From contig CACWWC010000009.1 in the NCBI GenBank assembly GCA_902764545.1, positions 5,540-69,539 on the forward strand: a DNA stretch of 64,000 bases, written 5' to 3'. Of this stretch, positions 32,247 through 44,571 are shown piece by piece. The stretch is from an uncultured Erysipelotrichaceae bacterium (GTDB taxonomy: Bacteria; Bacillota_I; Bacilli_A; RF39; UBA660). A model generated the notes under the pieces. That model searched no databases. It was not told where the DNA came from and saw only the letters and a list, made by a program, of their open reading frames with translations. Every line of letters starts with the position of its first letter. Position 1 is the first letter of the stretch. The position numbers and the translations under genes are program-made.

Positions 32247-32275
32247 AAAAAAAGCCATTATATTGGCTTTTTTTA
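32247..32275 (-). terminator. rho-independent terminator (GCCA-TTATAT-TGGC with T-run)
   Basis: Hairpin immediately after the stop of the 520-aa gene. Confidence 0.5.
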
Positions 32276-33835
32276 ATTAATATTAGCATTTATATTATTA
32301 ATTATATTATTTGTTTCTTGAAAGGCTATGTAATCACCATTATTTTTCCATTCACTATATTGTGTAGAATTCCACTCATCAAAACTTATCCATTCTCCAT
32401 CGTAATAAGTTCTTGTTGCATAGAAGTAATAATTTGAACTATTGTAATTTGATGTATAGAATGTTAAATCACAATATTGTGGTACATCCATATCTGAAGT
32501 TTGTTCTTGATCTTGACCTCTATTAAGTATCATCTTATCAAATTGATTTCTATTGAACTTAAATTGTACCGCTGAGCCTCCTGCAGATTCCGTAATAGAA
32601 CTTCCTGGCCAAGATCCATTGTTATTACCTGTTGCATTATTCCATAAATAATATTTTAAATTATGTTTATCTATGGTAAAAAATCTTACTTCATTTGAAT
32701 TGGCTCTATTAGGATAAATTTTAGGTACAAATATTTTTCCCCAATCATTTGATGTGAATTCTAGGTCTATGGTTTGTTTTCTTTTTATGTCATCATTTAA
32801 CCAAGTAATACTTGATTCTTTTCCATTAGTGAATATTATGTCAGTATAGTTTTCTAGGTATGATTCATTTATGGTATATTTGTATATATTTCTTTCATCA
32901 ATCTTAGTCATATCAATACCTGGCCAGACCATATATGCTGTTTCACTTGTTTTATTATATAAATACATTTTCACTGTGTAGTCTGATTCACTATCATCTT
33001 TATACCAATCTGGTGGCATTTGGAAATATATATTGTAGTTTTGATTATACTTTGCGTATAAAGTAATGTCTCCTGTTTTATTATTTAAGTTTGTTACTTT
33101 GTTGCCGCTGAATGTTGAATCTTCATACCAACCTACAAATGTTGCGTTTGTTTTGCTAGCATCTAGTATTTCAACAGTTTCTCCTTCTGCATAATATGTT
33201 GGCTGATTTTCTGCTTGAACTCCGCCGTTTAGTTCATACGTGATGTTATATAGTCTTGTAAATTTAAATTTAATTGTACCTGTTAAATTTCCATCTGTGA
33301 ATGTTTCATTATTATATTTATATTTTACAATGATATTTTTTGAGGATTTTTCTTCTATCAAATCTCCTATTCCAGTTGATGTATCATCAGTAATAACTTC
33401 TGGTACTATATCAGTGTTAGTATAGGCCCCAAGCTCCTCGTTTCCTGTTGTATCATATATAATTCCATCAAATCTATATTTAACATTATCAGTGTTTTTT
33501 ATTTCTACATTTAAAGATACTTCAGAGTCTTTATCTGCCAATATTATTTCGTTAGTTAATAATGTTTCAACATAATGATTAACTTTATATGAGGAATTTT
33601 CGCTCATACTTTCTAGTTTGACATCAGTTATTATTACACCGTCTTGTAAATCAAGTTCTAAATGCCCGTTTGCATATAAATTATATGTTGTTTGAGCAAA
33701 CGCTATTGTTGTAAATAGTAATCCTATAAAAACTATTGCAATTATTTTTGGTGATACCACTGTATTTCTTTTTCTTCTAATTTTTTTCAAATTATCACTC
33801 TCCTGTGTATGGTTCTGATGTAGCTTGAATTTCAA
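32273..33835 (-). CDS. secreted Asn/Tyr-rich protein (520 aa); last gene of the SipW-like operon
   Basis: Signal-like N-terminus …IAIVFIGLLFTTIAFAQTTYNLYANG resembles those of the small paralogs. Overlaps the upstream gene by 41 nt. Confidence 0.55.
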   Translation of the reverse strand: MKFKLHQNHTQESDNLKKIRRKRNTVVSPKIIAIVFIGLLFTTIAFAQTTYNLYANGHLELDLQDGVIITDVKLESMSENSSYKVNHYVETLLTNEIILADKDSEVSLNVEIKNTDNVKYRFDGIIYDTTGNEELGAYTNTDIVPEVITDDTSTGIGDLIEEKSSKNIIVKYKYNNETFTDGNLTGTIKFKFTRLYNITYELNGGVQAENQPTYYAEGETVEILDASKTNATFVGWYEDSTFSGNKVTNLNNKTGDITLYAKYNQNYNIYFQMPPDWYKDDSESDYTVKMYLYNKTSETAYMVWPGIDMTKIDERNIYKYTINESYLENYTDIIFTNGKESSITWLNDDIKRKQTIDLEFTSNDWGKIFVPKIYPNRANSNEVRFFTIDKHNLKYYLWNNATGNNNGSWPGSSITESAGGSAVQFKFNRNQFDKMILNRGQDQEQTSDMDVPQYCDLTFYTSNYNSSNYYFYATRTYYDGEWISFDEWNSTQYSEWKNNGDYIAFQETNNIINNINANIN

Positions 33836-34349
33836 TAGTTACGTCAGCACTTTTTTTACTGTCTGTTGGAACTTTTATAACTTTTCCTTTTATTGTAATG
33901 GTTGCATTTTTTCCAGGAGCTAATGTAGTTGTGTCATTTCCTTCTTCATCTTTTGTAATTTCCTCAACTTCAAAATATTCTGAATCACACGTTACATTTA
34001 TATTGAAATTAGCCGAAAAGTAGTTACTTTCATTTGCTATTGTATACTTTACTACTGCAGTATCTCCATATCCTTTCATACCCGTTACAGTAAACGATGC
34101 AGTTCTATTTGTTACATCATTACTGTCTAAATTTGCATCGATTGTCATATGACTTGGTTGATTTTCTGGGACTTCGACATCAACAAATTTTACTTTAAAA
34201 TCATCTGCAGATTTTATTCCTGTTGCACGGGCAGTTCCATTAATATTTAAAGTGATATTATTTATTTTAGCATATCCTATTGTTGCTATAGCAATAAGTA
34301 ATAATACTAATGTTAGTAGAAACATTTTATTATTAATTTTTTTTCTCAT
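33795..34349 (-). CDS. small secreted beta-rich protein B (184 aa), TasA/CalY-like candidate, paralog of 36854-37387
   Basis: Start set at MRKKINNK (GAAGGTGA RBS). Signal …LLLIAIATIGYAKINNITLNINGTARA parallels GIGYATINSIPLIINGTATA of the paralog. Confidence 0.55.
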   Translation of the reverse strand: MRKKINNKMFLLTLVLLLIAIATIGYAKINNITLNINGTARATGIKSADDFKVKFVDVEVPENQPSHMTIDANLDSNDVTNRTASFTVTGMKGYGDTAVVKYTIANESNYFSANFNINVTCDSEYFEVEEITKDEEGNDTTTLAPGKNATITIKGKVIKVPTDSKKSADVTIEIQATSEPYTGE

Positions 34350-34400
34350 TTTATCACCTTCTATAATGGAATAAATAGACATTTTTATAATGCCTATTAA

Positions 34401-35669
34401 TTATTTTTTAAATTTATATTCAGCTGTCTTATCTAATTGTTCATAAAGATCTTCATCAGAATTTTTAGTACCCATGATGGCATTTTTATCATCTAGAATT
34501 TCTATTTCTGTTGTATTTTTTATATCTTCATTTATTTTATCGATTGTATAGAATTTTTGTACAGGTCTTTGGTTGGTAATGTCTCTTGCATCGTAATCTG
34601 GAGCTTTTGTCCCCCTAATTTCTGATTCAATATCTACTACTCTAATTGCGTATGTATAAATTACCCCGTCTTCTACAGGAATAAGGAAATATGTTCCAGT
34701 TTTTTCTTTGTTTTCAAGCATTAGTAGTGGTTTTTCTGATGATTCTTTGATTTCAATCATATCTTGAAAACTTTCTACCTTACATATTTGTGATGCACCT
34801 AATGGGTAATCTCCGCTTATTTTTTGAATATATGAGTCATATGCTAGAGTTATTTTTTTAATTCTATTTTCATAAATATCTTGTACTGTTCTAGTTTTCT
34901 TAATATATCTATTAATTAAAACAAACATAACTATTGAACATATTATAAATATTATTCCTGTTATTAATATTAAAATATAATTTTTATCAGGTTTTACTAG
35001 TATTCTACTATCGTTTGAATTAAGAGATGTTCCACTTATATCAACATTAACTGTTTTTGTGGTTAATGGTATTGTAATACTACTTTTAGCATTACTAATT
35101 TTAGATAAATCTATATTCTGATGTGTATTTAGATTTCTGACATTAACATCCATTGATACTTTTAATGTATTTGTTGTTTGTGATAAATCATAAGTACTAA
35201 TAAAACTGCTTAACAAATTATTATATTTATTATAATCAATATCAATATTATAATTTATATTCATTCCATTTTTAGTTATTTTATCTTCTGATGTATATAA
35301 TACTTCATTTTTTGTAAATAAAACTTTATCATTGTCACCATCTGTTACATTAAATTCAGCAATTATTCTATAATTATATGAATACTCAATTCCACTTTGA
35401 AGATCTAACTTATAATTAAAGTTTGCAGGTATATAATCAATTAATGATGCAACATATTGATTACCTCTTTCAATGCACTTAGATTCATAGAAATTATTGT
35501 CTTTTAAACATACACTATAATTAACATTACTATCTTCTTGATAATTAATGTAGTGTCCATTACTTAGTATTTTAAACATTAACAGCGAAAATACACCTAC
35601 TACTAAAAGAATTGTAGGCAATAAGTATAAATTTTTAATATTGATTTTTTCTTTTTTATTATGATTCAT
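34401..35669 (-). CDS. two-TM membrane protein (422 aa) with an extracellular Asn-rich domain and a cytoplasmic C-terminal domain
   Basis: TM at residues ~15-35 and ~232-254. Sits between the peptidase gene and secreted protein B. Confidence 0.5.
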   Translation of the reverse strand: MNHNKKEKINIKNLYLLPTILLVVGVFSLLMFKILSNGHYINYQEDSNVNYSVCLKDNNFYESKCIERGNQYVASLIDYIPANFNYKLDLQSGIEYSYNYRIIAEFNVTDGDNDKVLFTKNEVLYTSEDKITKNGMNINYNIDIDYNKYNNLLSSFISTYDLSQTTNTLKVSMDVNVRNLNTHQNIDLSKISNAKSSITIPLTTKTVNVDISGTSLNSNDSRILVKPDKNYILILITGIIFIICSIVMFVLINRYIKKTRTVQDIYENRIKKITLAYDSYIQKISGDYPLGASQICKVESFQDMIEIKESSEKPLLMLENKEKTGTYFLIPVEDGVIYTYAIRVVDIESEIRGTKAPDYDARDITNQRPVQKFYTIDKINEDIKNTTEIEILDDKNAIMGTKNSDEDLYEQLDKTAEYKFKK

Positions 35670-35672
35670 AAT

Positions 35673-36812
35673 TTAACCTCTCTTTACTCTTTCAAAAAAC
35701 TCATTAATCCATATCGTTGGTTGTCCAATTTTTGCTATTTTTAATTTAACTTTTCCTTTGAATGTTTTTCTTGTAACATATCCTGAATCCTGTTGTATAT
35801 TATTGTCACCTTTTGTATATAATCTTATTTCATCATTTATATCTTCTATTTTTACCACTCTATGAACAATAATTTTTGTATTGGTTGAATATAAAATGAT
35901 ATCCCCTTTTTTTATATCTTTTATATCTTTTGAATTTTTATAAATTATTGCATCTCCTTTATCAAGTGTTCCTGTCATCGAGCCTGAGCCTATCACTAGC
36001 ATTCCATATGTAAATTTGCATGATATTAACATTGCGACTATTGCCATTATTACAATACTTATTATTGTTGAGGCCGCTTTTAATTTTCGATTATGTACTG
36101 TTATTACTTTTTTATCTTTTTCATATACACTCTTTAAAACAATATATATTAATAATGGATAAAGCATTCTACATACTGATTTGAAATATATGTATACATC
36201 AGGAGTAAATGGTATTATATATAAATATATTGTTGTAATAATCCTGTAAATGATATTGGGTACAATCCCAAATTCTTCTGATATATAGTTGAAAAGGATG
36301 TTTGATACAATTGATGCAAAAAATATATAGCCTATTGCTTCTAAAAATTCATTTAAATTGAATATATTGTAAATATTAACATACATTACTAAATCAACTA
36401 GTACAGTAAAGATTAGTGTATTTATTCTTGAAGCATTTGTCTTTTCAGATAAAAATTCATTTCTAATTATTTCAGATGTAATTATTATCAATATTGAAGG
36501 AATAATATAATTTATTATTGTATGAATTCCAAATTTGTAGGCCGACACATAATAACCCACATATATTCCAATTACATAATATAGTACAACATATAGAATA
36601 GCAAATATGGTCATATATTTTGTAATATCTTTTTTATATATTGAGGATTGGTGTGTTCTACTAATTATCTTTCTTGTGATAAATGCATATAGGACTAAAA
36701 TTAATGCAATAAGCATTTTATTGGTTAAAACTTTTGATGTAATTAGAATACTTACAAAAAATATAATTATAAATAATTGTAATGCATATATTTTGTATAA
36801 CCCCTTTTTCAT
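35673..36812 (-). CDS. signal peptidase I, SipW-type (S26B), with a ~245-aa polytopic N-terminal extension
   Basis: The C-terminal 130 aa has GSGSMTGTLDKGD (catalytic Ser) and IIVHRVV (His) and is colinear with SipW/archaeal-type SPase I. It is preceded by 7-8 predicted TM helices of unknown function. Confidence 0.7.
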   Translation of the reverse strand: MKKGLYKIYALQLFIIIFFVSILITSKVLTNKMLIALILVLYAFITRKIISRTHQSSIYKKDITKYMTIFAILYVVLYYVIGIYVGYYVSAYKFGIHTIINYIIPSILIIITSEIIRNEFLSEKTNASRINTLIFTVLVDLVMYVNIYNIFNLNEFLEAIGYIFFASIVSNILFNYISEEFGIVPNIIYRIITTIYLYIIPFTPDVYIYFKSVCRMLYPLLIYIVLKSVYEKDKKVITVHNRKLKAASTIISIVIMAIVAMLISCKFTYGMLVIGSGSMTGTLDKGDAIIYKNSKDIKDIKKGDIILYSTNTKIIVHRVVKIEDINDEIRLYTKGDNNIQQDSGYVTRKTFKGKVKLKIAKIGQPTIWINEFFERVKRG

Positions 36813-36853
36813 AACTTTACTCCTTTTTATGTTTTATTAATTCACGGAGTTTA

Positions 36854-37387
36854 TTAATTTACTGGACTTGCTACTAATCTTGTTGTAATAATTGATTCTT
36901 GATTATTTTCTATTGGTGTTTTTACTACCTCAACTTCTATTGCAAGTGTTGTTGTTGCACCAGCATCCAATAATGTTTTATTTTGATTGTTAGCATCAGG
37001 TGTTCCAAACGTTCTAGTAACTTTGAAATACTCCGCATTTGTATTAGAAGTTCCATCATTTGAAATTTCTATTTCTGCATTTAATCCAGTTGATGAATTT
37101 GTAATATTGAAAATAATTATTGCTTTATCGCCTACTGCCGTTAAATCTTTTGTGGTAAAACTTGCACTTAAACCTTTTGAGATAGGTTCAGGATCAAGCA
37201 CAATATTTTGCGGTCCATCTTGATAACCATTAAATTCTACTTTAAAGTTGTTTTGATTTGGGGAAGCAGTTGCGGTACCATTTATAATTAATGGTATTGA
37301 ATTAATCGTGGCATAACCGATACCCAAAACAATTACAGCGATTAGTGCATATAATGCGATGGATAGACTTTTGCTTTTGTGATTCAC
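36854..37387 (-). CDS. small secreted beta-rich protein A (177 aa), TasA/CalY-like candidate
   Basis: GTG start with an AAAGGA RBS. Signal peptide …LGIGYATINSIPLIINGTATA. First gene of the operon. Confidence 0.55.
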   Translation of the reverse strand: MNHKSKSLSIALYALIAVIVLGIGYATINSIPLIINGTATASPNQNNFKVEFNGYQDGPQNIVLDPEPISKGLSASFTTKDLTAVGDKAIIIFNITNSSTGLNAEIEISNDGTSNTNAEYFKVTRTFGTPDANNQNKTLLDAGATTTLAIEVEVVKTPIENNQESIITTRLVASPVN

Positions 37388-37555
37388 CTTAAATCAATCC
37401 TTTCTCTCTATAATTATTTTTCCTATTATCTATTTAATGATACCAAATTTTATAATTTTTGTATATTATTTTTGAAATTTTTGTCGTAAAATTATACTTT
37501 TTGTTGAAGATTTGGATAATATACTCAATAATAATTGATTAAAGGAGTGGTAAGT

Positions 37556-37903
37556 ATGAAAAATAAAAATGCTTATGACAATAATAGAGATTTTATCAAC
37601 AAGATTTTTGATAGATCTGATAATCCGATTGAGGAATTAGAGAGGATTAATAGCGTTGTTCCAATATTTTTTATTGATGAGAATAACATAAACTATATTA
37701 ATGAAGGGTTAGATAAATATGGCTATGAAATCAATCCAAATTATATTTCTGATGTGAAATCACAGTGTCAAATGTATGGTTACCCTGCTTGTGGTGGTGG
37801 CGGTATAGGACATTCTTCTTGTTGTAGTTCACTAAATATTGATAAGCCGTTATTATTGGTAAAAAAGAATAATGGTGGTATTGAAAATGGAATTAGATAT
37901 TAA
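37556..37903 (+). CDS. Cys-rich small protein (115 aa); candidate precursor/partner of the adjacent radical SAM enzyme
   Basis: AAAGGAGTGG RBS. C-terminal QCQMYGYPACGGGGIGHSSCCSS cluster. The 3' end overlaps the radical SAM ORF by 32 nt in another frame. Confidence 0.45.
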   Translation: MKNKNAYDNNRDFINKIFDRSDNPIEELERINSVVPIFFIDENNINYINEGLDKYGYEINPNYISDVKSQCQMYGYPACGGGGIGHSSCCSSLNIDKPLLLVKKNNGGIENGIRY

Positions 37904-38363
37904 AGGAAAAAAATATAATATTAAACCCTATGCCTGTTCTCCCTGTGATGAATTTCCTTTTTATATAAATATTACTAATGTATGTAATGCAAAGTGTAGT
38001 TTTTGTTCTAACGCTTGTAATAAAGATTATGGTAAATTAGACTTAAATTACTTAGAGGAAATTTTAGAACAAATCAGCAATAATATAAGTAGATTCTCTA
38101 TTAGTGGTTGTGAAACACTATTATATCCAAATGATTTAGAAGATTTACTTAAATTATTACAAAAATATGATAGAAGAATAACTTTAAATACTAATGGTAG
38201 TTTTTTAAAAGAGAATGTTGAAATGCTAAATAAATATAATAATATTGAATCTATTCAGCTAAGTAGACATCATTACATCGATGAAAAAAATAATGAAGTA
38301 TTCAATATAGAGACTTTACCTTTTAGTGAATTGAATAAAAAAACTAACCTATTTCTTGATTAG
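37872..38363 (+). CDS. radical SAM protein, minimal activase-like (163 aa)
   Basis: CNAKCSFCSN is a CX3CX2C motif, followed by a SAM-binding-like ISGCETLL. No SPASM domain. Confidence 0.6.
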   Translation: MVVLKMELDIKGKKYNIKPYACSPCDEFPFYINITNVCNAKCSFCSNACNKDYGKLDLNYLEEILEQISNNISRFSISGCETLLYPNDLEDLLKLLQKYDRRITLNTNGSFLKENVEMLNKYNNIESIQLSRHHYIDEKNNEVFNIETLPFSELNKKTNLFLD

Positions 38364-38375
38364 TTATATAAAAAA

Positions 38376-38401
38376 GCTCGAAAAGTTTGAGCATATTTTT
38401 T
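38376..38401 (+). terminator. possible rho-independent terminator
   Basis: GCTCGAAA-AG-TTTGAGC imperfect hairpin plus a T6 run, 13 nt after the radical SAM stop. Confidence 0.35.
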
Positions 38402-38669
38402 ATGGAGCAGTTAAGTAACAGTTTACTCTCTTTCTAAAAATATTGCATATGAATTCTTATTAAATGTCAATGGGAGTATATGAAAAATCGTAAAATAATG
38501 TATAATATATTTTATAGATTATTTTACATTTAATTAAAAGGAGGAGGTAAAAATAGATAGATTAGAAGAAAACACAGTATATTTATATGCTGAATATAAA
38601 ATTAATGATGAAACAAAATGCCAAGTTATTCCTAGTGGTAACATTTCAGATTTAATATATGAAGAAGGA

Positions 38670-40151
38670 ATGAAAGAGGTATGTTTTAAAAATATTATAT
38701 ATGATGATGGTGTTTTAATAGATTGTACATTGAATAATTCAGGTACTTATTCTTTAGGTATTCCAGTAATATCTAAGGAATTTATAGAAATGTATGAAAA
38801 TAATGATTTACGAATTAAAAAAGGTAATACTATCAATGATGCATATGAATATTTTAAAGAGAATCATTTGATGGATGCTAATCTTATTATTATGCCAAAC
38901 AACCAAATAATTTTTAATCTTAATTCAAAATCAGTAATGCCAAAAATAAATGGTGAACCTATTTATATATCTAAATCAGATATTATTAAAGGAAATAATT
39001 ATTGGTATATTGAACTACATGAAGGTAATTCTGTAAAATATGAAAAAACTTACTTAGGGGATAAAAAATATAGAGGTCAAAAATGTGATTATTATTCTTT
39101 CGTTTTAGTAACAGAGTATCAAGTAGATGGTAAAGAAATGCATAAAATCATTCATAGAGATAAAACAAATTATTTGTATAGTGAGTATAATCCTAGTAAA
39201 TTAGACCTGATTATCGACCAAGCAAAAACATTATTGGAATCTCATGACTATAAATTTAAAGATTTTAGTGGAGTTACACCACTTTATAGATTTAATTCTG
39301 AAGATAGCGCATGTGTCTTTATGGATAATAAATCATTAATAACGGGACAAAATGTTGTTACAGTTACAGGAAGTGGTGATGCAATTTTAGATTTATTTAT
39401 GAATGGTGCAAAAAAAATAGTATCATTTGATATTAATTCTATGGCTGCATTTTGGGCAGAATTAAAATTTGTTGCTGCAAAATATCTAAATTATCAAGAT
39501 TATTTAAATTTAATTAATAATCTTAATTATGATATATATAGTAAGATAAGTTATTATTTAAACCCTAATACAAAAAAATTATGGGACGAATTATATAATT
39601 TTTGTGATTTAAGAGAAATAAGAATTGATGGAGAACAATCCAATTTGATATACCACACATCATTTTTAAGTTTTGATTATTCACAAGATAATCTTAATGG
39701 ATACTGCAATGAAGATAATTATTATAGATTACAAAAAATATTAAGTAACAAATCTATTAGTGATGTTAGTTTTGTTACATGTGATATATTTGATTTACCA
39801 AATTCAGCAGATTTAAGCAACTATTCATATGCTTATTTGTCAAATATAATGGATTTTCTTGTAGGTATTGACAAATTAGAAATTGACGAAAGTGCCGTAG
39901 AAAAATTTAAAGATTTTGTTTCTCAATCCTTATTACCATCAATGAAAGAAGATGCCAATATAGATTTGTGTTATATATCTGAAAATTGGCATTTAGGTAA
40001 ATCTAAAAAAATCTATTCTGAAAAATTTTCAGAATATGAAGGATATCGTAAGACACCTTTATCAAATACTAATTGTAAAGCTTGTGTATTATCATTTAGA
40101 TCATATCTAAGAAAAAATTATATACAAAGTACCAGTTCACATAAAAAATAA
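38670..40151 (+). CDS. hypothetical protein (493 aa), possibly with a Rossmann-like nucleotide/SAM-binding segment
   Basis: GGAGG RBS upstream. The VVTVTGSGDAILDLF segment resembles motif I of class I methyltransferases and DUF3419/BtaA-like proteins. Confidence 0.45.
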   Translation: MKEVCFKNIIYDDGVLIDCTLNNSGTYSLGIPVISKEFIEMYENNDLRIKKGNTINDAYEYFKENHLMDANLIIMPNNQIIFNLNSKSVMPKINGEPIYISKSDIIKGNNYWYIELHEGNSVKYEKTYLGDKKYRGQKCDYYSFVLVTEYQVDGKEMHKIIHRDKTNYLYSEYNPSKLDLIIDQAKTLLESHDYKFKDFSGVTPLYRFNSEDSACVFMDNKSLITGQNVVTVTGSGDAILDLFMNGAKKIVSFDINSMAAFWAELKFVAAKYLNYQDYLNLINNLNYDIYSKISYYLNPNTKKLWDELYNFCDLREIRIDGEQSNLIYHTSFLSFDYSQDNLNGYCNEDNYYRLQKILSNKSISDVSFVTCDIFDLPNSADLSNYSYAYLSNIMDFLVGIDKLEIDESAVEKFKDFVSQSLLPSMKEDANIDLCYISENWHLGKSKKIYSEKFSEYEGYRKTPLSNTNCKACVLSFRSYLRKNYIQSTSSHKK

Positions 40152-40191
40152 AAAGAAAAAAATTGAAATCTCTAGGGTTAAAAAAGTTATG

Positions 40192-40222
40192 AACTCCATT
40201 TATAGATGGAGTTATATTTTTA
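40192..40222 (+). terminator. rho-independent terminator (AACTCCAT-TTATAG-ATGGAGTT plus T-run)
   Basis: Perfect 8-bp stem and a T-rich tail downstream of the 493-aa gene. Confidence 0.6.
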
Positions 40223-40450
40223 CTATTATATTAAAGATATATTTTTTTACTATTCATATTTATCTGCGTATAATTAACTGCTTTTATCATTTATAATTTT
40301 ATTTAAATCTTTAATTACTTTATCTAATTTTTTTGACAATTATTATTGTCATTTATTACTAAATGTATTTTTATAAAATAAAAACTTACGAACTTTAATT
40401 AGTCCGTAAGTTGTCTTCAAATGGAGCGGTTGCCGTAGATATCTACAACT

Positions 40451-40848
40451 TTAAAATGATAATATAATCATATTTTCGTCTGGATCTAATATACCAAACT
40501 CAATATTTCCATAGTCTGTGTTTGTCCATTCCATAAAAAATTTTATTTTATTATTTAAAAGCGTGTTATATAAATTTAATAATTCATCTCTATCATCAAA
40601 TTTCAATTTAATTAAGTTACTATTTTTGTTTTCCTTGGATAACTAGGAATTTCTTTACAAACTACCGCATAATTTTCAAACATAATTGAATAATCATCTC
40701 TTCTCATTTTAACCAATGAAATCGGATCACCATCGGTTTCAATAACTTCAAATCCAAGATGTTTATTATAAAAATTAATAGACTTTTCTATATCACTAAC
40801 AGCAAATTCATTTATAATCTCTAAAAGTTTTATATTATTATCCTCCAA
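40451..40848 (-). pseudogene. VOC/glyoxalase-family protein disrupted by a frameshift
   Basis: N-half (40612-40848, …HLGFEVIETDG…) and C-half (40451-40611 in the +1 frame, …EFGILDPDENMIIL) together make a ~130-aa glyoxalase fold. One extra A in the A5 run (plus-strand T5 at 40623-40627) restores a single ORF. Confidence 0.6.
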
Positions 40849-41132
40849 AATTTTTTATATTTATTATATCATTTTTATTATTTTTAGTATATAAATTAGC
40901 AATATTTTGTTTATGACAAAATATTTAACCCCCCTAGGTATTTTGACACAAGTATCAAAATTACCTGTGGGGATTCTTTATTCAAAAAAAATCAGTCGTT
41001 TCAGACTGAAAGTTTATTTAAAGTTCGAAAAAGTTCGAACAGACTTCCCAATAGAGCGATAACTTTACTTATATTCGAAAAATCATACTCCCAAAGTTAT
41101 TTGATTAAATCAACTAAATAAATTATAGCACA

Positions 41133-42050
41133 TTATTTTACTATTATAAAGTCTTTTAAATTTATTTTTGTGGGTTTCATATTTTCTTCGTTATTTGAAT
41201 ATTTAAATCCTGACAAATTAGTTACATACTCTTTTGAATCATAATCGAATGAGAAAGCCATAAAGTCTATCAAGTGATAAGAATCATAATACATAAATAT
41301 ATCGTATGTATTATTAGGTAAGCATGGTATTTTGCATGCTACAATATTATCTGAAGTAACTAGCAATTGACACCCTTCAATATTATTTAAATTTGTTATT
41401 GTATAATGTTTAGAATTTGAAATTATATTAGAAAATTGTGCTAGTTTTATAATATCTTCTTTAGTTAATAATTCTTTTAAAATAGAAATATTATTAAATC
41501 TTTTTTTAGGGTCAAACTTTTTAATTATTTCTTCATAACAATCTTCAATATTTTCGTCTGCATAATATTTAAAGAAAAATGGTATATTTAACAATGTGTC
41601 CAATAATTGCTTTTCTACACCTTCACACATAAGTGTATTTAAAAAACAATCGTATAATTTATAAACATAATCTATTACTTTTCTATCTGACTCAGTTACC
41701 GCAAAGAATGCTTCATTATTCTTATATGTATTCATAAAGATTTCAAAGTTTATAATTTCATTTCTAGATTTATTTATCGTAATGTTTATTTTGTTATTTC
41801 TATCAAATTCTTTTTTTGAAATAAATAGAGATATATTTTTTGAAGAAATGTGAGTAACTATTCCAACTAGTAATGCATCTCCTAAAATATTAAATACTAA
41901 AAAATCCAAATCGTTAAATCCACTAGTAAAAAATAATAAACCATTATAAGACAGTAAGGCAATAATTATGAAGGTTATTATTAAGCCTAATAAAATAATT
42001 TTATATTTATAAGTTTTCAATTTTTCTGTTTTTATTTCAAATATCACCAT
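41133..42050 (-). CDS. hypothetical membrane-anchored protein (305 aa)
   Basis: Two N-terminal TM helices, no recognisable domain. Located in the island-like region. Confidence 0.45.
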   Translation of the reverse strand: MVIFEIKTEKLKTYKYKIILLGLIITFIIIALLSYNGLLFFTSGFNDLDFLVFNILGDALLVGIVTHISSKNISLFISKKEFDRNNKINITINKSRNEIINFEIFMNTYKNNEAFFAVTESDRKVIDYVYKLYDCFLNTLMCEGVEKQLLDTLLNIPFFFKYYADENIEDCYEEIIKKFDPKKRFNNISILKELLTKEDIIKLAQFSNIISNSKHYTITNLNNIEGCQLLVTSDNIVACKIPCLPNNTYDIFMYYDSYHLIDFMAFSFDYDSKEYVTNLSGFKYSNNEENMKPTKINLKDFIIVK

Positions 42051-42319: not shown

Positions 42320-43624
42320 ATGATAGATGTAATTGAAGATGTAAGAAATGAATTTAAAGTTAAATTAACAGATAAGTTTGAAGAAGAAGTTATATCATTT
42401 TTGAATACTAATGGTGGTAATATCTACATTGGTGTTAATGATAAAGGTGATATTGTTGGAATAAATGGTAATATTGATTTATTACAAAGGACTATTAAGG
42501 ATAGAATAAAAGATAATATAATGCCATCAACATTAGGATTATATGATGTTGTTGTATTGGAAGAAAACAATAAAAAATATATTAAAATAATTATTGCTCG
42601 TGGTAGTGATGATCCATATTACATTAAAGGTATGGGAATGACACTAGATAGTTGCTTTATTAGAGTTGGTAGTTCAATACAAAGTATGCCTTATGATATG
42701 ATTAATAATAGAGTTAATAAAAGAACTAGGACATCATTAAGGAATATAGTATCCCCTAAACAAGATTTAACTTTTAGTCAATTAAAAATATATTATGAAG
42801 AAAAAGGTTTTAATATTAATAATAATTTTTTAAAGCAATTAGACTTATATACTGATGATGGTAAATATAATTATAATGCTTATTTACTTGCTGACAATAA
42901 TACAATATCTATTAGATTTGGAAAATATGAAGGAACAAATGCTGTTGATTTAATAGAAAATGAAGATTTTGGTAATTGTTCTATTGTTAAAGCAACAAAG
43001 AATATTTTAAATAAGATAGAAATAGAAAATAGGATATTTACAAAAATAGAATACCCTGAAAGAAAAGAAATTAAAATGTATGATTTTGCCGCAGTAAGAG
43101 AAGCAGTTGTTAATGCAATTGTACATAATGATTGGTCTAACGAATATGCTCCAAAATTTGAAATGTTTAGTGATAAATTAGTAATATCATCAAATGGTGG
43201 TATTCAACCATCTACTACAAAAGAAGAATTTTTAGAGGGATATTCATTACCTAAAAATAAAGAACTAATGAAAGTATTTAATGATTTAGATTTAGTTGAA
43301 CAAATGGGTACAGGTATAATAAGAATACTTCAAAGTTATGATAAAAAATCATTTGAATTTTTTCCTAATTTTATTAGAGTTACATTTCCATTTAATAAAG
43401 ATAAATTTAGAGAAGAAGCAAAAGAAATTACCGAATTAACTGAAACTCAAAAATCTATTATTAATTTAATGTTAGATTCACCAACTATTACACAAGAGGT
43501 GTTGTCAAAACTATTAGGTGTTAATATTAGAACTATTCAAAGAAATATAAAAACACTTATTGAAATGGGATTAATTGAAAGAACTGGTGCTACTAAAAAA
43601 GGTGAATGGATAGTAAAAAAATAA
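42320..43624 (+). CDS. AlbA_2/Schlafen-like putative ATP-dependent DNA-binding regulator with a C-terminal winged HTH
   Basis: N-terminal …EEVISFLNTNGGNIYIGVNDKGDIVGI is the AlbA_2 (divergent AAA-4) signature. A HATPase_c_4-like middle region. The C-terminal TQEVLSKLLGVNIRTIQRNIKTLIEMGLIER is a wHTH. Confidence 0.6.
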   Translation: MIDVIEDVRNEFKVKLTDKFEEEVISFLNTNGGNIYIGVNDKGDIVGINGNIDLLQRTIKDRIKDNIMPSTLGLYDVVVLEENNKKYIKIIIARGSDDPYYIKGMGMTLDSCFIRVGSSIQSMPYDMINNRVNKRTRTSLRNIVSPKQDLTFSQLKIYYEEKGFNINNNFLKQLDLYTDDGKYNYNAYLLADNNTISIRFGKYEGTNAVDLIENEDFGNCSIVKATKNILNKIEIENRIFTKIEYPERKEIKMYDFAAVREAVVNAIVHNDWSNEYAPKFEMFSDKLVISSNGGIQPSTTKEEFLEGYSLPKNKELMKVFNDLDLVEQMGTGIIRILQSYDKKSFEFFPNFIRVTFPFNKDKFREEAKEITELTETQKSIINLMLDSPTITQEVLSKLLGVNIRTIQRNIKTLIEMGLIERTGATKKGEWIVKK

Positions 43625-43701: not shown

Positions 43702-44571
43702 ATGGATAATGATGAAAATATGGATTTAATGCTTAGTGATGAAGAATTAGAAAAGTTAGGTATTTCTTTTCACGAGCCAACACCTGAAGAAATAGAAGAA
43801 AAAAGGATAAATAGAGCAAAAGAATTAGAAAGTAAGGGCTTTTTACCGGAAAATGCTGAACTTAATGAAACCATGTCTAGTCCACAAGAATTAGTTGAAA
43901 CAAATCCGAGAAGATTTATTATTGAGGAATGTATTCCTGCATGTCAAGAATTATGGTCAAAAAATATTTATACTTTTATGGTTAGTGATCATTTAAATGA
44001 GGGGCAATGCTGGATAGAAATAATAGTTGATGGACTTTCAGATGAAAATAAGGAAGTTTTCATGAATTTATCTGGTGATGATGTGATAAAATTTTCATAT
44101 CATAGAGGAACTATTAATTTTGGAGTTAAACTTGTTGGAAAGGAAGGACAGTCAAGATTACTAGAACTAGCACAGCAGTTTCAAATGCAAGATGTTCCTA
44201 TAAATCAATCATATATCTCAATGCAGGATTTTCTATTAGAATATTGTGGTTGCTATGATGAAATACCTAATCCAAATTATATAGAAATGAAACCAGCTTG
44301 GGAAATGGAATTGTCGGTAGAACAGATAGCTGATTATATGCAAAAATATGATGAGTGGCAAGAATCACCAGCAAGCAAAAAAACTTTTAAACAATTTAAT
44401 CCAAATAAACTTACAAAATCTGTAAATGAAGTAGCAGAAGAAAAAGGAATGATTATTGACGGCGATAGAGTTTATTTAAGCAAATTTCATTATAAAAAGC
44501 ATCAAAACTATTTGAATTCATTAGAAAATGTGACAAGTTTGGAGGAAAAAACTGGTCATTCAAAAAAATAA
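43702..44571 (+). CDS. acidic hypothetical protein (289 aa)
   Basis: GGAGG RBS, terminator hairpin downstream at 44584-44620. Confidence 0.5.
   Translation: MDNDENMDLMLSDEELEKLGISFHEPTPEEIEEKRINRAKELESKGFLPENAELNETMSSPQELVETNPRRFIIEECIPACQELWSKNIYTFMVSDHLNEGQCWIEIIVDGLSDENKEVFMNLSGDDVIKFSYHRGTINFGVKLVGKEGQSRLLELAQQFQMQDVPINQSYISMQDFLLEYCGCYDEIPNPNYIEMKPAWEMELSVEQIADYMQKYDEWQESPASKKTFKQFNPNKLTKSVNEVAEEKGMIIDGDRVYLSKFHYKKHQNYLNSLENVTSLEEKTGHSKK

Follow-up and report, generated by a model that had tools for sequence, protein, structure and literature searches.

The subject of this analysis is a pair of overlapping genes in a 64,000-nucleotide (nt) stretch of contig CACWWC010000009.1 (the whole stretch is called the window below), assembled from an uncultured Erysipelotrichaceae bacterium. 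The first gene, ORF1, is an open reading frame (ORF) for a 115-amino-acid (aa) protein with a Cys/Gly-rich tail, and the second encodes a radical S-adenosylmethionine (SAM) protein, abbreviated rSAM. The locus is very probably a decayed copy of a conserved two-gene cassette, composed of a precursor-like protein with Cys/His repeats and a 275-aa rSAM enzyme, and the cassette is most likely inactive here. The cassette represents an apparently undescribed, compact enzyme-precursor family in gut Firmicutes. The initial annotation of the pair offered two readings: a precursor-like peptide with a small activase or maturase, or a single rSAM protein split at a homopolymer. Its description of ORF1 (37556-37903) was confirmed from the sequence, as was that of an rSAM ORF with a CX3CX2C motif and no SPASM domain; the motif reads CNAKCSFC, and Pfam finds only Radical_SAM in this ORF, apart from a sub-threshold match to Fer4_12. 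The coordinates of all features are collected in Table 1.

The two genes are paired well beyond this genome. The comparison took in 26 related loci, drawn from genomes in GTDB and metagenomes at JGI and including Clostridium, Clostridiales and Bacilli gut metagenome-assembled genomes (MAGs). Fifteen of them have a separate ORF1-like gene whose end lies 17 nt (14 nt in two cases) within the rSAM gene; its frame always differs from that of rSAM, and the two are never joined. In three more loci, a Cys-rich ORF either ends 13-25 nt upstream of the rSAM gene or is split by a frameshift. No fused form of ORF1 and rSAM was found in any locus checked, which settles in favor of separate genes a comparison of orthologs that the initial annotation had proposed. 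When flanking ORFs were compared all against all, the precursor and the rSAM gene were the sole neighbors common to divergent loci. The pair is no chance arrangement of ORFs, since it recurs in many divergent genomes and metagenomes, and the precursor-like gene is the conserved, constant upstream partner of the rSAM family, overlapping it. The extent of the overlap in the window depends on the start of the second gene. The 32 nt reported initially are correct for the ORFs as called, with an rSAM start at 37872, but homologs and gene calls on related contigs support a start at MELDIKG, which gives a product of 158 aa and a true overlap of 17 nt. An rSAM start located 17 nt ahead of the precursor stop suggests that translation of the two genes is coupled.

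ORF1 is 100% identical to P0074, a protein present on at least 10 contigs, and is a regular member of a family of its own. A precursor-family profile search of a set of 5.8 billion proteins retrieved 22 clusters, the exact window sequence among them; P0074 matches the profile with an E-value of 2e-37, and the window ORF1 aligns over its full length. No source provided a name or a Pfam domain for any of the 22 clusters, and no curated family in Pfam or NCBIfam was matched at E<=0.1 by the window ORF1 or by its homologs from up to four other loci. Family members are 115-155 aa long. Their leader of ~75 aa holds all four invariant positions (R20, P36, N49 and N60) and most of the near-invariant ones (I17, F18, S21, P24, E29, F39, L52 and G56), giving the signature (I/V)F.RS..P ... 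P..F ... N..L...G..(I/L)N. The core consists of 1-5 G-H-P-(S/A)-C-G units with Gly/Ser/Tyr-rich spacers and a terminal GHPSCCSS, and it is followed by a tail, LLL(V/I)(K/R)KN..G..N(E/G)IRN, that is kept when homologs are read in the ORF1 frame across the run of six A residues (A6) present in the window. The window protein has the leader, the Cys core and the LLL-type tail, and its C-terminal part reads ...QMYGYPACGGGGIGHSSCCSS...GIRY*, with the closing letters ...QMYGYPACGGGGIGHSSCCSSLNIDKPLLLVKKNNGGIENGIRY*. Its GYPACG at 37778-37795, like the GHPACG unit in general, resembles the CC(H/N)PACG core of alpha-conotoxins, almost certainly by coincidence.

The core varies both in sequence and in repeat number, yet it always presents Cys in a Gly/Ser-rich context. 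Among conspecific precursors, the 126- and 143-aa alleles have one or two GHPACG units more than the 115-aa allele of the window, the differences being in whole units, and the window form matches the loss of 84 nt between PACGGGG repeats. In another species, for which L002/L033 (one and the same human-gut contig) was compared with L030-L032, intact precursors have 129 or 142 aa and differ by one GHPSCGPSTGYPS unit, and the older assembly has the gene split into 48 and 79 aa. Changes of repeat number and frameshifts of the precursor are thus not limited to the species of the window. More distant partners keep the leader and exchange the unit for SSCGSS, GGCGS, GGHPCG or at least 11 copies of ITTCSGS (L009), and the constant feature of the core across them is a Cys in a small-residue context. 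In the last case (L009:518-1260), the rSAM homolog is 61% identical, and the gene upstream of it encodes no GHPxCG protein but a long one that carries the ITTCSGS repeats and is interrupted by the end of the contig, which suggests that different Cys-repeat substrates are served by the rSAM enzyme family. In an AlphaFold2 model of the 143-aa allele P0060, residues 4-74 form a helical N-terminal domain, with block values of the predicted local distance difference test (pLDDT) of 84-89, residues 77-123 a disordered core (pLDDT <50) and the LLL of residues 129-131 a short strand. No relatives of the leader domain were found in the PDB by structure or by sequence. A leader that is conserved, a core that is repetitive and variable, and an rSAM gene closely coupled downstream are together the classic mark of a peptide or protein made by ribosomes and modified after translation, and the first of the two initial readings was therefore right in kind, as a precursor-like protein with an rSAM maturase; its proposal of a small activase does not stand, because the gene is the remnant of one for a 275-residue enzyme.

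The full-length enzyme belongs to a family without a curated model. About 38 close full-length homologs are 52-99% identical to the window rSAM, measure ~275 aa and start at MELDIKG; one of them, P0001 (275 aa), is 99% identical. P0001 matches Pfam Radical_SAM (PF04055) with 61.4 bits, and the best NCBIfam match of the full-length enzyme is MoaA (TIGR02666), at 61.9 bits against a cut-off of 284. Across Pfam, NCBIfam and PADLOC, the enzyme has only generic or sub-threshold rSAM matches, and the precursor has no match. Nine of 10 distant family representatives are likewise without a curated family; the tenth, P0118, scores under the cut-off with HemN-like models through a fused N-terminal domain. 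This 737-aa protein is a natural fusion of an N-terminal HemN-like rSAM domain, whose best NCBIfam match is the STM4012 family (160 bits versus a cut-off of 380), and a C-terminal domain of the present rSAM family (residues 442-723). In a profile search, 1.84 billion cluster representatives yielded 157 proteins at a threshold of E<=1e-30 and 908 at one of E<=1e-10, most of them 280-310 aa long, which makes the wider family a sizeable one. A full-text literature search, which included sequence motifs and whose coverage excludes figures and most subscription journals, found no paper on the family, and one compendium paper on rSAM enzymes of peptides that are made by ribosomes and modified after translation (RiPPs) does not mention it.

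The predicted structure of the full-length enzyme is of high confidence, with a mean pLDDT of 93.9 and a predicted TM-score of 0.90. Its fold matches among solved structures are MoaA as the best (TM-score 0.62-0.68), SuiB, BlsE, GDGT-MAS, viperins, EpeE/YydG and SkfB, at 13-25% identity, and the best PDB match by sequence is YydG/EpeE (E 3e-12), which covers the first ~100 residues only. By neither route was a close relative of the enzyme found in the PDB. The SPASM domain model (PF13186) matches neither P0001 nor P0036. In agreement, the conserved cysteines downstream of the core are limited to C162, C232 and C234, fewer than the seven of a SPASM domain. An RRE (PqqD-like) domain was not found: only ~25 residues precede the cluster motif, and no third gene is conserved in the related loci. 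Besides the CX3CX2C motif, C17, C162, C232 and C234 are invariant in 22 close homologs and >90% conserved more widely in a 49-sequence alignment, and, judged by this conservation, they could hold an auxiliary Fe-S cluster. The C-terminal residues invariant in the 22 close homologs are INCLL (with C162), GF.SM, an RCSC-type motif (with C232 and C234) and SLF.D..GL..GY.

These features suggest how the cassette would work in intact relatives, in which the precursor is the probable substrate of the rSAM enzyme. The enzyme would dock on the leader and/or the tail (the LLL strand) of the precursor, SAM would be cleaved to a 5'-deoxyadenosyl radical, and each repeat would be modified at, or adjoining, its single Cys. 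Our best guess for the product is a thioether-type cross-link within each repeat, as in sactipeptides and ranthipeptides, because PapB and the streptosactin enzyme GggB modify repeated Cys units. By this analogy, such a link seems the most likely chemical outcome, although as a specific prediction we regard it as doubtful.

Several points weigh against a peptide-modifying cassette. The relation of substrate to enzyme rests on gene adjacency, gene overlap and the pattern of a conserved leader with a variable core. The precursor is large and lacks a signal peptide, and the comparison of flanking ORFs in related loci found no protease or exporter conserved beside the pair; what the cassette makes may therefore be a protein that carries the modification, not a peptide that is released. 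The His is missing in the more distant loci L009, L010, L013, L034 and L036, so the GHPxCG unit is not universal to the wider family. Finally, the nearest sequence and fold relatives of the enzyme include MoaA and viperin, which act on nucleotides, and this resemblance makes a non-peptide substrate possible. The main live alternative builds on the same resemblance: the small Cys/His-rich protein would be a partner (for example a scaffold binding metal or Fe-S, a carrier or else a regulator) of an rSAM enzyme acting on a nucleotide (GTP for MoaA, CTP for viperin) or another small molecule. The lack of an RRE domain and of a conserved protease or exporter would fit this arrangement, and a folded 75-aa domain with His/Cys repeats could bind metal. 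We nevertheless consider it improbable, because a conserved leader combined with a hypervariable core of variable repeat number is typical of modified-peptide precursors, the other top matches (SuiB, EpeE/YydG and SkfB) are peptide-modifying rSAM enzymes, and the MoaA and viperin models score far under their family cut-offs.

Read as a precursor-maturase cassette, the pair would work most like those of the sactipeptide/ranthipeptide type (AlbA-SboA, SkfB-SkfA, CteB-SCIFF, PapB-PapA and streptosactin GggB), yet it lacks the SPASM/Twitch and RRE domains and the family scores by which membership can be tested. The likeness lies in an rSAM gene beside that of a Cys-containing precursor whose leader is conserved and whose core varies, and in SuiB and SkfB being among the best fold matches of the enzyme. 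PapB/freyrasin and streptosactin also share the use of repeated Cys-containing units, each modified separately. In contrast, the present enzyme has 275 aa, neither the SPASM/Twitch Pfam signature nor an N-terminal RRE, and NCBIfam scores of 21-46 bits against cut-offs of 300-850 for these families; the precursor has 115-155 aa, a folded 75-aa leader and a conserved C-terminal tail, and unlike SCIFF and other curated RiPP precursor families, it matches no NCBIfam or Pfam model. MoaA, the GTP 3',8-cyclase, is the best match among solved structures and NCBIfam models and likewise has extra C-terminal cysteines beyond the core barrel, but it is only 18-20% identical, the score of 61.9 bits falls far short of 284, and the gene here is coupled to a Cys-repeat protein rather than to molybdopterin genes. 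The epipeptide epimerase YydG/EpeE, the best PDB sequence match, is, together with YydF, a small Firmicutes rSAM system acting on a ribosomal peptide; only the N-terminal ~100 residues align, however, and the NCBIfam score is 43 where the cut-off lies at 300. YydF itself is a short peptide that has no Cys/His repeats. The His-Xaa-Ser system (HxsA with the rSAM proteins HxsB and HxsC) also joins a repeat precursor to rSAM enzymes, H-P-S and H-S-S of the present family formally fit His-Xaa-Ser, and HxsC is among the sub-threshold matches (45 bits versus a cut-off of 268). It differs in that a single rSAM, not a pair, is found here, that HPAC and HPC contain no Ser, and that the constant residue is Cys rather than Ser.

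The window copy of this cassette is damaged in both genes. When the NCBIfam models were run on the window rSAM, many rSAM families scored far under their cut-offs, each aligned over its first ~110-120 positions, and this confinement was the first sign of a truncated gene; Pfam Radical_SAM, at 57.8 bits (cut-off 29.5), covers model positions 1-110 of 166. We also used a hypothetical fused ORF1-rSAM protein as a query against the 5.8-billion-protein set and obtained 54 matching proteins, every one over the rSAM part only. Full-length homologs extend 124 residues beyond ...PFSELNK, the point at which the window copy diverges. A tblastn search of the 64-kb window found rSAM residues 1-151 only, and the possibility that the missing 3' half lies elsewhere in the window, for instance separated by an insertion, was rejected on that result. 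The conspecific contig L001, 99.45% identical to window 32886-38346, has a complete rSAM gene, and its similarity to the window ends abruptly at 38346. In another conspecific contig, L027, the undeleted order is precursor, rSAM, ydjC and then sequence equal to window 38329-38499. The sequence AATAAAA occurs proximally in GAATTGAATAAAATTAAAACTAC, distally in TTTAATAAAAAAACTAACC and, at the junction in the window, in GAATTGAATAAAAAAACTAACC, and its presence at both breakpoints and at the junction identifies the window allele as a microhomology-mediated deletion of ~1,274 bp relative to the L027-type allele, comprising rSAM codons 152-275 and the ydjC gene. The last seven rSAM codons and the stop at 38361-38363 are fortuitous products of the junction.

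In addition to this deletion, the retained part of the gene carries a substitution in the SAM-binding motif. GGE (G75, E76) is invariant in the 49-sequence alignment and reads GCE in the window; with the truncation, the window copy has neither the complete core barrel nor the intact GGE expected of a functional enzyme. The rSAM gene is a 3'-truncated remnant, and the pair is predicted to be non-functional in this genome: the deletion, the GCE and a precursor short of repeats and of the His in its first unit would together disable it. The rSAM protein had initially been called minimal; it is short through truncation, retaining codons 1-151 of 275, and carries the GCE besides. A complete and functional minimal enzyme of 158 or 163 aa, acting on ORF1 in the manner of the NrdG and PflA activases, is accordingly very improbable. 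The fragment is close in size to NrdG-type activases, shares with NrdG/PflA a CX3CX2C motif near the N-terminus and a weak Fer4_12 match, and has NrdG2 as its best NCBIfam match (E 5.6e-13). However, this match reaches 48.7 bits against a cut-off of 131 and, like the others, involves only the first ~110 positions of each model. The subfamily assignment proposed initially ended without a family: scores of 48.7-52.3 bits versus 131 for NrdG2 and 26.6-38 versus 232 for PFLA were obtained, and no NCBIfam family was reached. The fragment also lacks 124 residues conserved in all homologs, including C162, C232, C234 and SLF.D..GL..GY, and its final seven codons are unrelated sequence from the deletion junction. 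Its GGE motif is mutated, and, on reading the sequence, ORF1 contains no RVxG[FWY] glycyl-radical motif. The full-length enzyme itself differs from NrdG/PflA in its 275 aa with a C-terminal Cys-containing beta region, in scores of 38-52 bits against cut-offs of 131-232, and in having no glycyl-radical motif or glycyl-radical enzyme gene nearby.

Decay of the cassette is not confined to the window. Conspecific contigs (>99% identical, with the same SipW/DUF5305 flank), from many independent assemblies, were retrieved with the exact ORF1 sequence and its cluster relatives, and their alleles were compared base by base with L001 as the reference. L001 and L044 have a 1-nt deletion in the precursor and an intact rSAM gene, and the resulting 51-aa precursor fragment, P0077, occurs on 24 contigs. 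L042 and L043 have an intact 126-aa precursor and a +C frameshift at rSAM codon 19. A 4-nt deletion (ATTA) at rSAM codon 51 is found in L017, L022, L024, L027, L028 and L029, and the 1.27-kb 3' deletion in the window and in L016, L021, L024, L025 and L026. Two of these contigs are double lesions: L026 combines the +C frameshift at codon 19 with the 3' deletion, and L024 combines the 4-nt deletion with it. The substitution G75C (GGE to GCE) is present in the window, L016, L017, L019, L020, L021 and L023-L026. In L018, which lacks G75C, our own reading of G710T at the second position of codon 127 gives R127I in the invariant LSRHHY, and this may be one more damaging mutation of independent origin. 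In 13 alleles (the window, L001, L016, L017, L021, L022, L024-L027 and L042-L044), the two genes can be seen in full, and none of the 13 is free of disabling lesions, which are of four independent kinds besides G75C. Phase variation was rejected as the source of the frameshifts, because the 4-nt and 1.27-kb deletions are no reversible homopolymer slips.

Metagenome-derived assemblies can hold indel errors and chimeric joins, and the lesions might on this ground be assembly or sequencing artifacts in a genome whose cassette is intact. This is again very improbable. The same deletion junction is found in at least five other independent assemblies from different projects (L016, L021, L024, L025 and L026), and the 4-nt deletion lies outside a homopolymer and recurs in six contigs. 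The lesions return in several sequencing projects and are combined in different ways, as segregating alleles would be, and we therefore regard them as real.

The least credible alternative, whose probability we consider negligible, is the second initial reading, in which a true A5 would make the locus a single ~270-aa rSAM protein with an N-terminal Cys-rich domain: an A6 run is indeed present, and with one A removed the two frames become continuous, no stop lying between them, but homologs start at MELDIKG and reach their ~275 aa by a C-terminal rather than an N-terminal extension, no fusion accompanies the separate ORF1-like frames that end 17 or 14 nt inside rSAM, the conserved tail LLL(V/I)(K/R)KN..IRN runs across A6 in the ORF1 frame, and the tract is identical in L001 and in ten conspecific assemblies aligned, from different projects.

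Table 1 Features of the ORF1-rSAM locus in the window.
Feature	Position	Strand	Basis or remark
Promoter-like TTGAAG-17-AATAAT upstream of ORF1	37504-37532	+	Consensus scan; weak evidence
Ribosome-binding site AAGGAG	37542-37547	+	8 nt 5' of the ORF1 ATG; read from the sequence
ORF1, precursor-like protein, 115 aa	37556-37903	+	ORF reading; short repeat-contracted allele
ORF1 subdivision: leader, aa 1-75; core, aa 75-92; tail, aa 93-115			
ORF1 core region GYPACGGGGIGHSSCCSS	37778-37831	+	One degenerate G-H-P-A-C-G unit and terminal GHSSCCSS
ORF1 codon 76, TAC (Tyr)	37781-37783	+	CAC (His) in other family members, L001, L042 and L043; C225T
A6 homopolymer within ORF1 tail LLLVKKNN	37861-37866	+	Not a frameshift site
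rSAM ORF as called, 163 aa	37872-38363	+	Contains CNAKCSFC
rSAM gene remnant from homolog-supported start MELDIKG	37887-38363	+	Codons 1-151 of 275, 7 unrelated codons, stop
CX3CX2C motif (C33, C37, C40) for the SAM-cleaving [4Fe-4S] cluster	37983-38006	+	Invariant in the 49-sequence alignment
rSAM codon 75, TGT (Cys) for the invariant Gly of GGE	38109-38111	+	SISGCETLL versus SISGGETLL; G553T versus L001
Deletion junction at 7-nt microhomology AATAAAA	38334-38340	+	Comparison with L027 and L001
Terminator-like hairpin GCTCGAAAAGTTTGAGC with T run	38376-38402	+	Hairpin itself 38376-38392

Promoter-like sites are as numerous in the consensus scan as shuffling predicts for such AT-rich DNA, and the terminator-like hairpin is one site seen against 0.3 expected; in the undeleted arrangement, as judged by comparison with L027, this hairpin sits 3' of ydjC. 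Rfam gave no credible regulatory RNA in 35000-42000, the single match, to mir-216, being one expected by chance, and a search for DNA repeats at 37500-38700 yielded only chance AT-rich matches. The pair opens a plus-strand block (37.5-44.6 kb) that interrupts the otherwise minus-strand gene order and the guanine-cytosine skew of the window.

Upstream, on the minus strand at 32273-37387, lies a gene for a SipW-type signal peptidase of 379 aa with a ~240-aa multi-transmembrane N-terminal extension, accompanied by a DUF5305 protein (422 aa) and two paralogous secreted proteins of TasA/camelysin size (177 and 195 aa); near-identical contigs have a Flg_new-domain protein called at the position matching window 32273-33835. 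This group looks like a fibre or matrix secretion cluster; as the flanks differ in other loci, it has no connection with the rSAM pair. Downstream of the deletion, a DUF3419 gene (38553-40151) is called as 493 aa from an ATG at 38670. Two proteins closely related to it, P0101 and P0102 (the second is present on 102 contigs), have 532 aa and start at MDRLEEN; at 38553, 7 nt after a strong GGAGGAGG ribosome-binding site, the window has ATA in place of their ATG, as do the five other deletion-allele contigs (L016, L021, L024, L025 and L026). Either the start codon has been lost, or ATA serves here as a rare start. Further on, at 42320-43624, is a 434-aa protein with Schlafen AlbA_2, HATPase_c_4 and winged-helix domains, for which PADLOC matches are weak only, and the two adjoining ORFs (41133-42050 and 43702-44571) belong to no family. 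The DNA downstream of rSAM differs between strains, and mobile-element genes are found beside intact or near-intact cassettes: an IS110 transposase just downstream in a conspecific contig (L044:3990-5171), and Mob_Pre with serine recombinases downstream of the cassette in a human-gut contig (L002:7213-12687).

For this genome, the findings mean that the window rSAM merits annotation as a pseudogene and that its A6 tract is no error. Several independent knock-outs in one nearly clonal population also provide a clear natural example of the loss of an accessory cassette. For the family, we propose tentatively, and with rather less than even confidence, that the intact relatives constitute a new class of rSAM-modified peptides or proteins. 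In such a class, a 275-aa maturase of the MoaA fold, devoid of SPASM and RRE domains and bearing a new four-Cys auxiliary site, would recognize the folded leader and/or the LLL strand and introduce a novel Cys-centered modification in each G-H-P-x-C-G repeat, and the at least four independent knock-outs in one gut Clostridium-like species would suggest selection against its product. The enzyme is without both hallmarks of known peptide-modifying rSAM maturases, SPASM/Twitch and RRE, and if the repeats are modified, the cassette would be a small, tractable system for new radical chemistry on Cys/His motifs.

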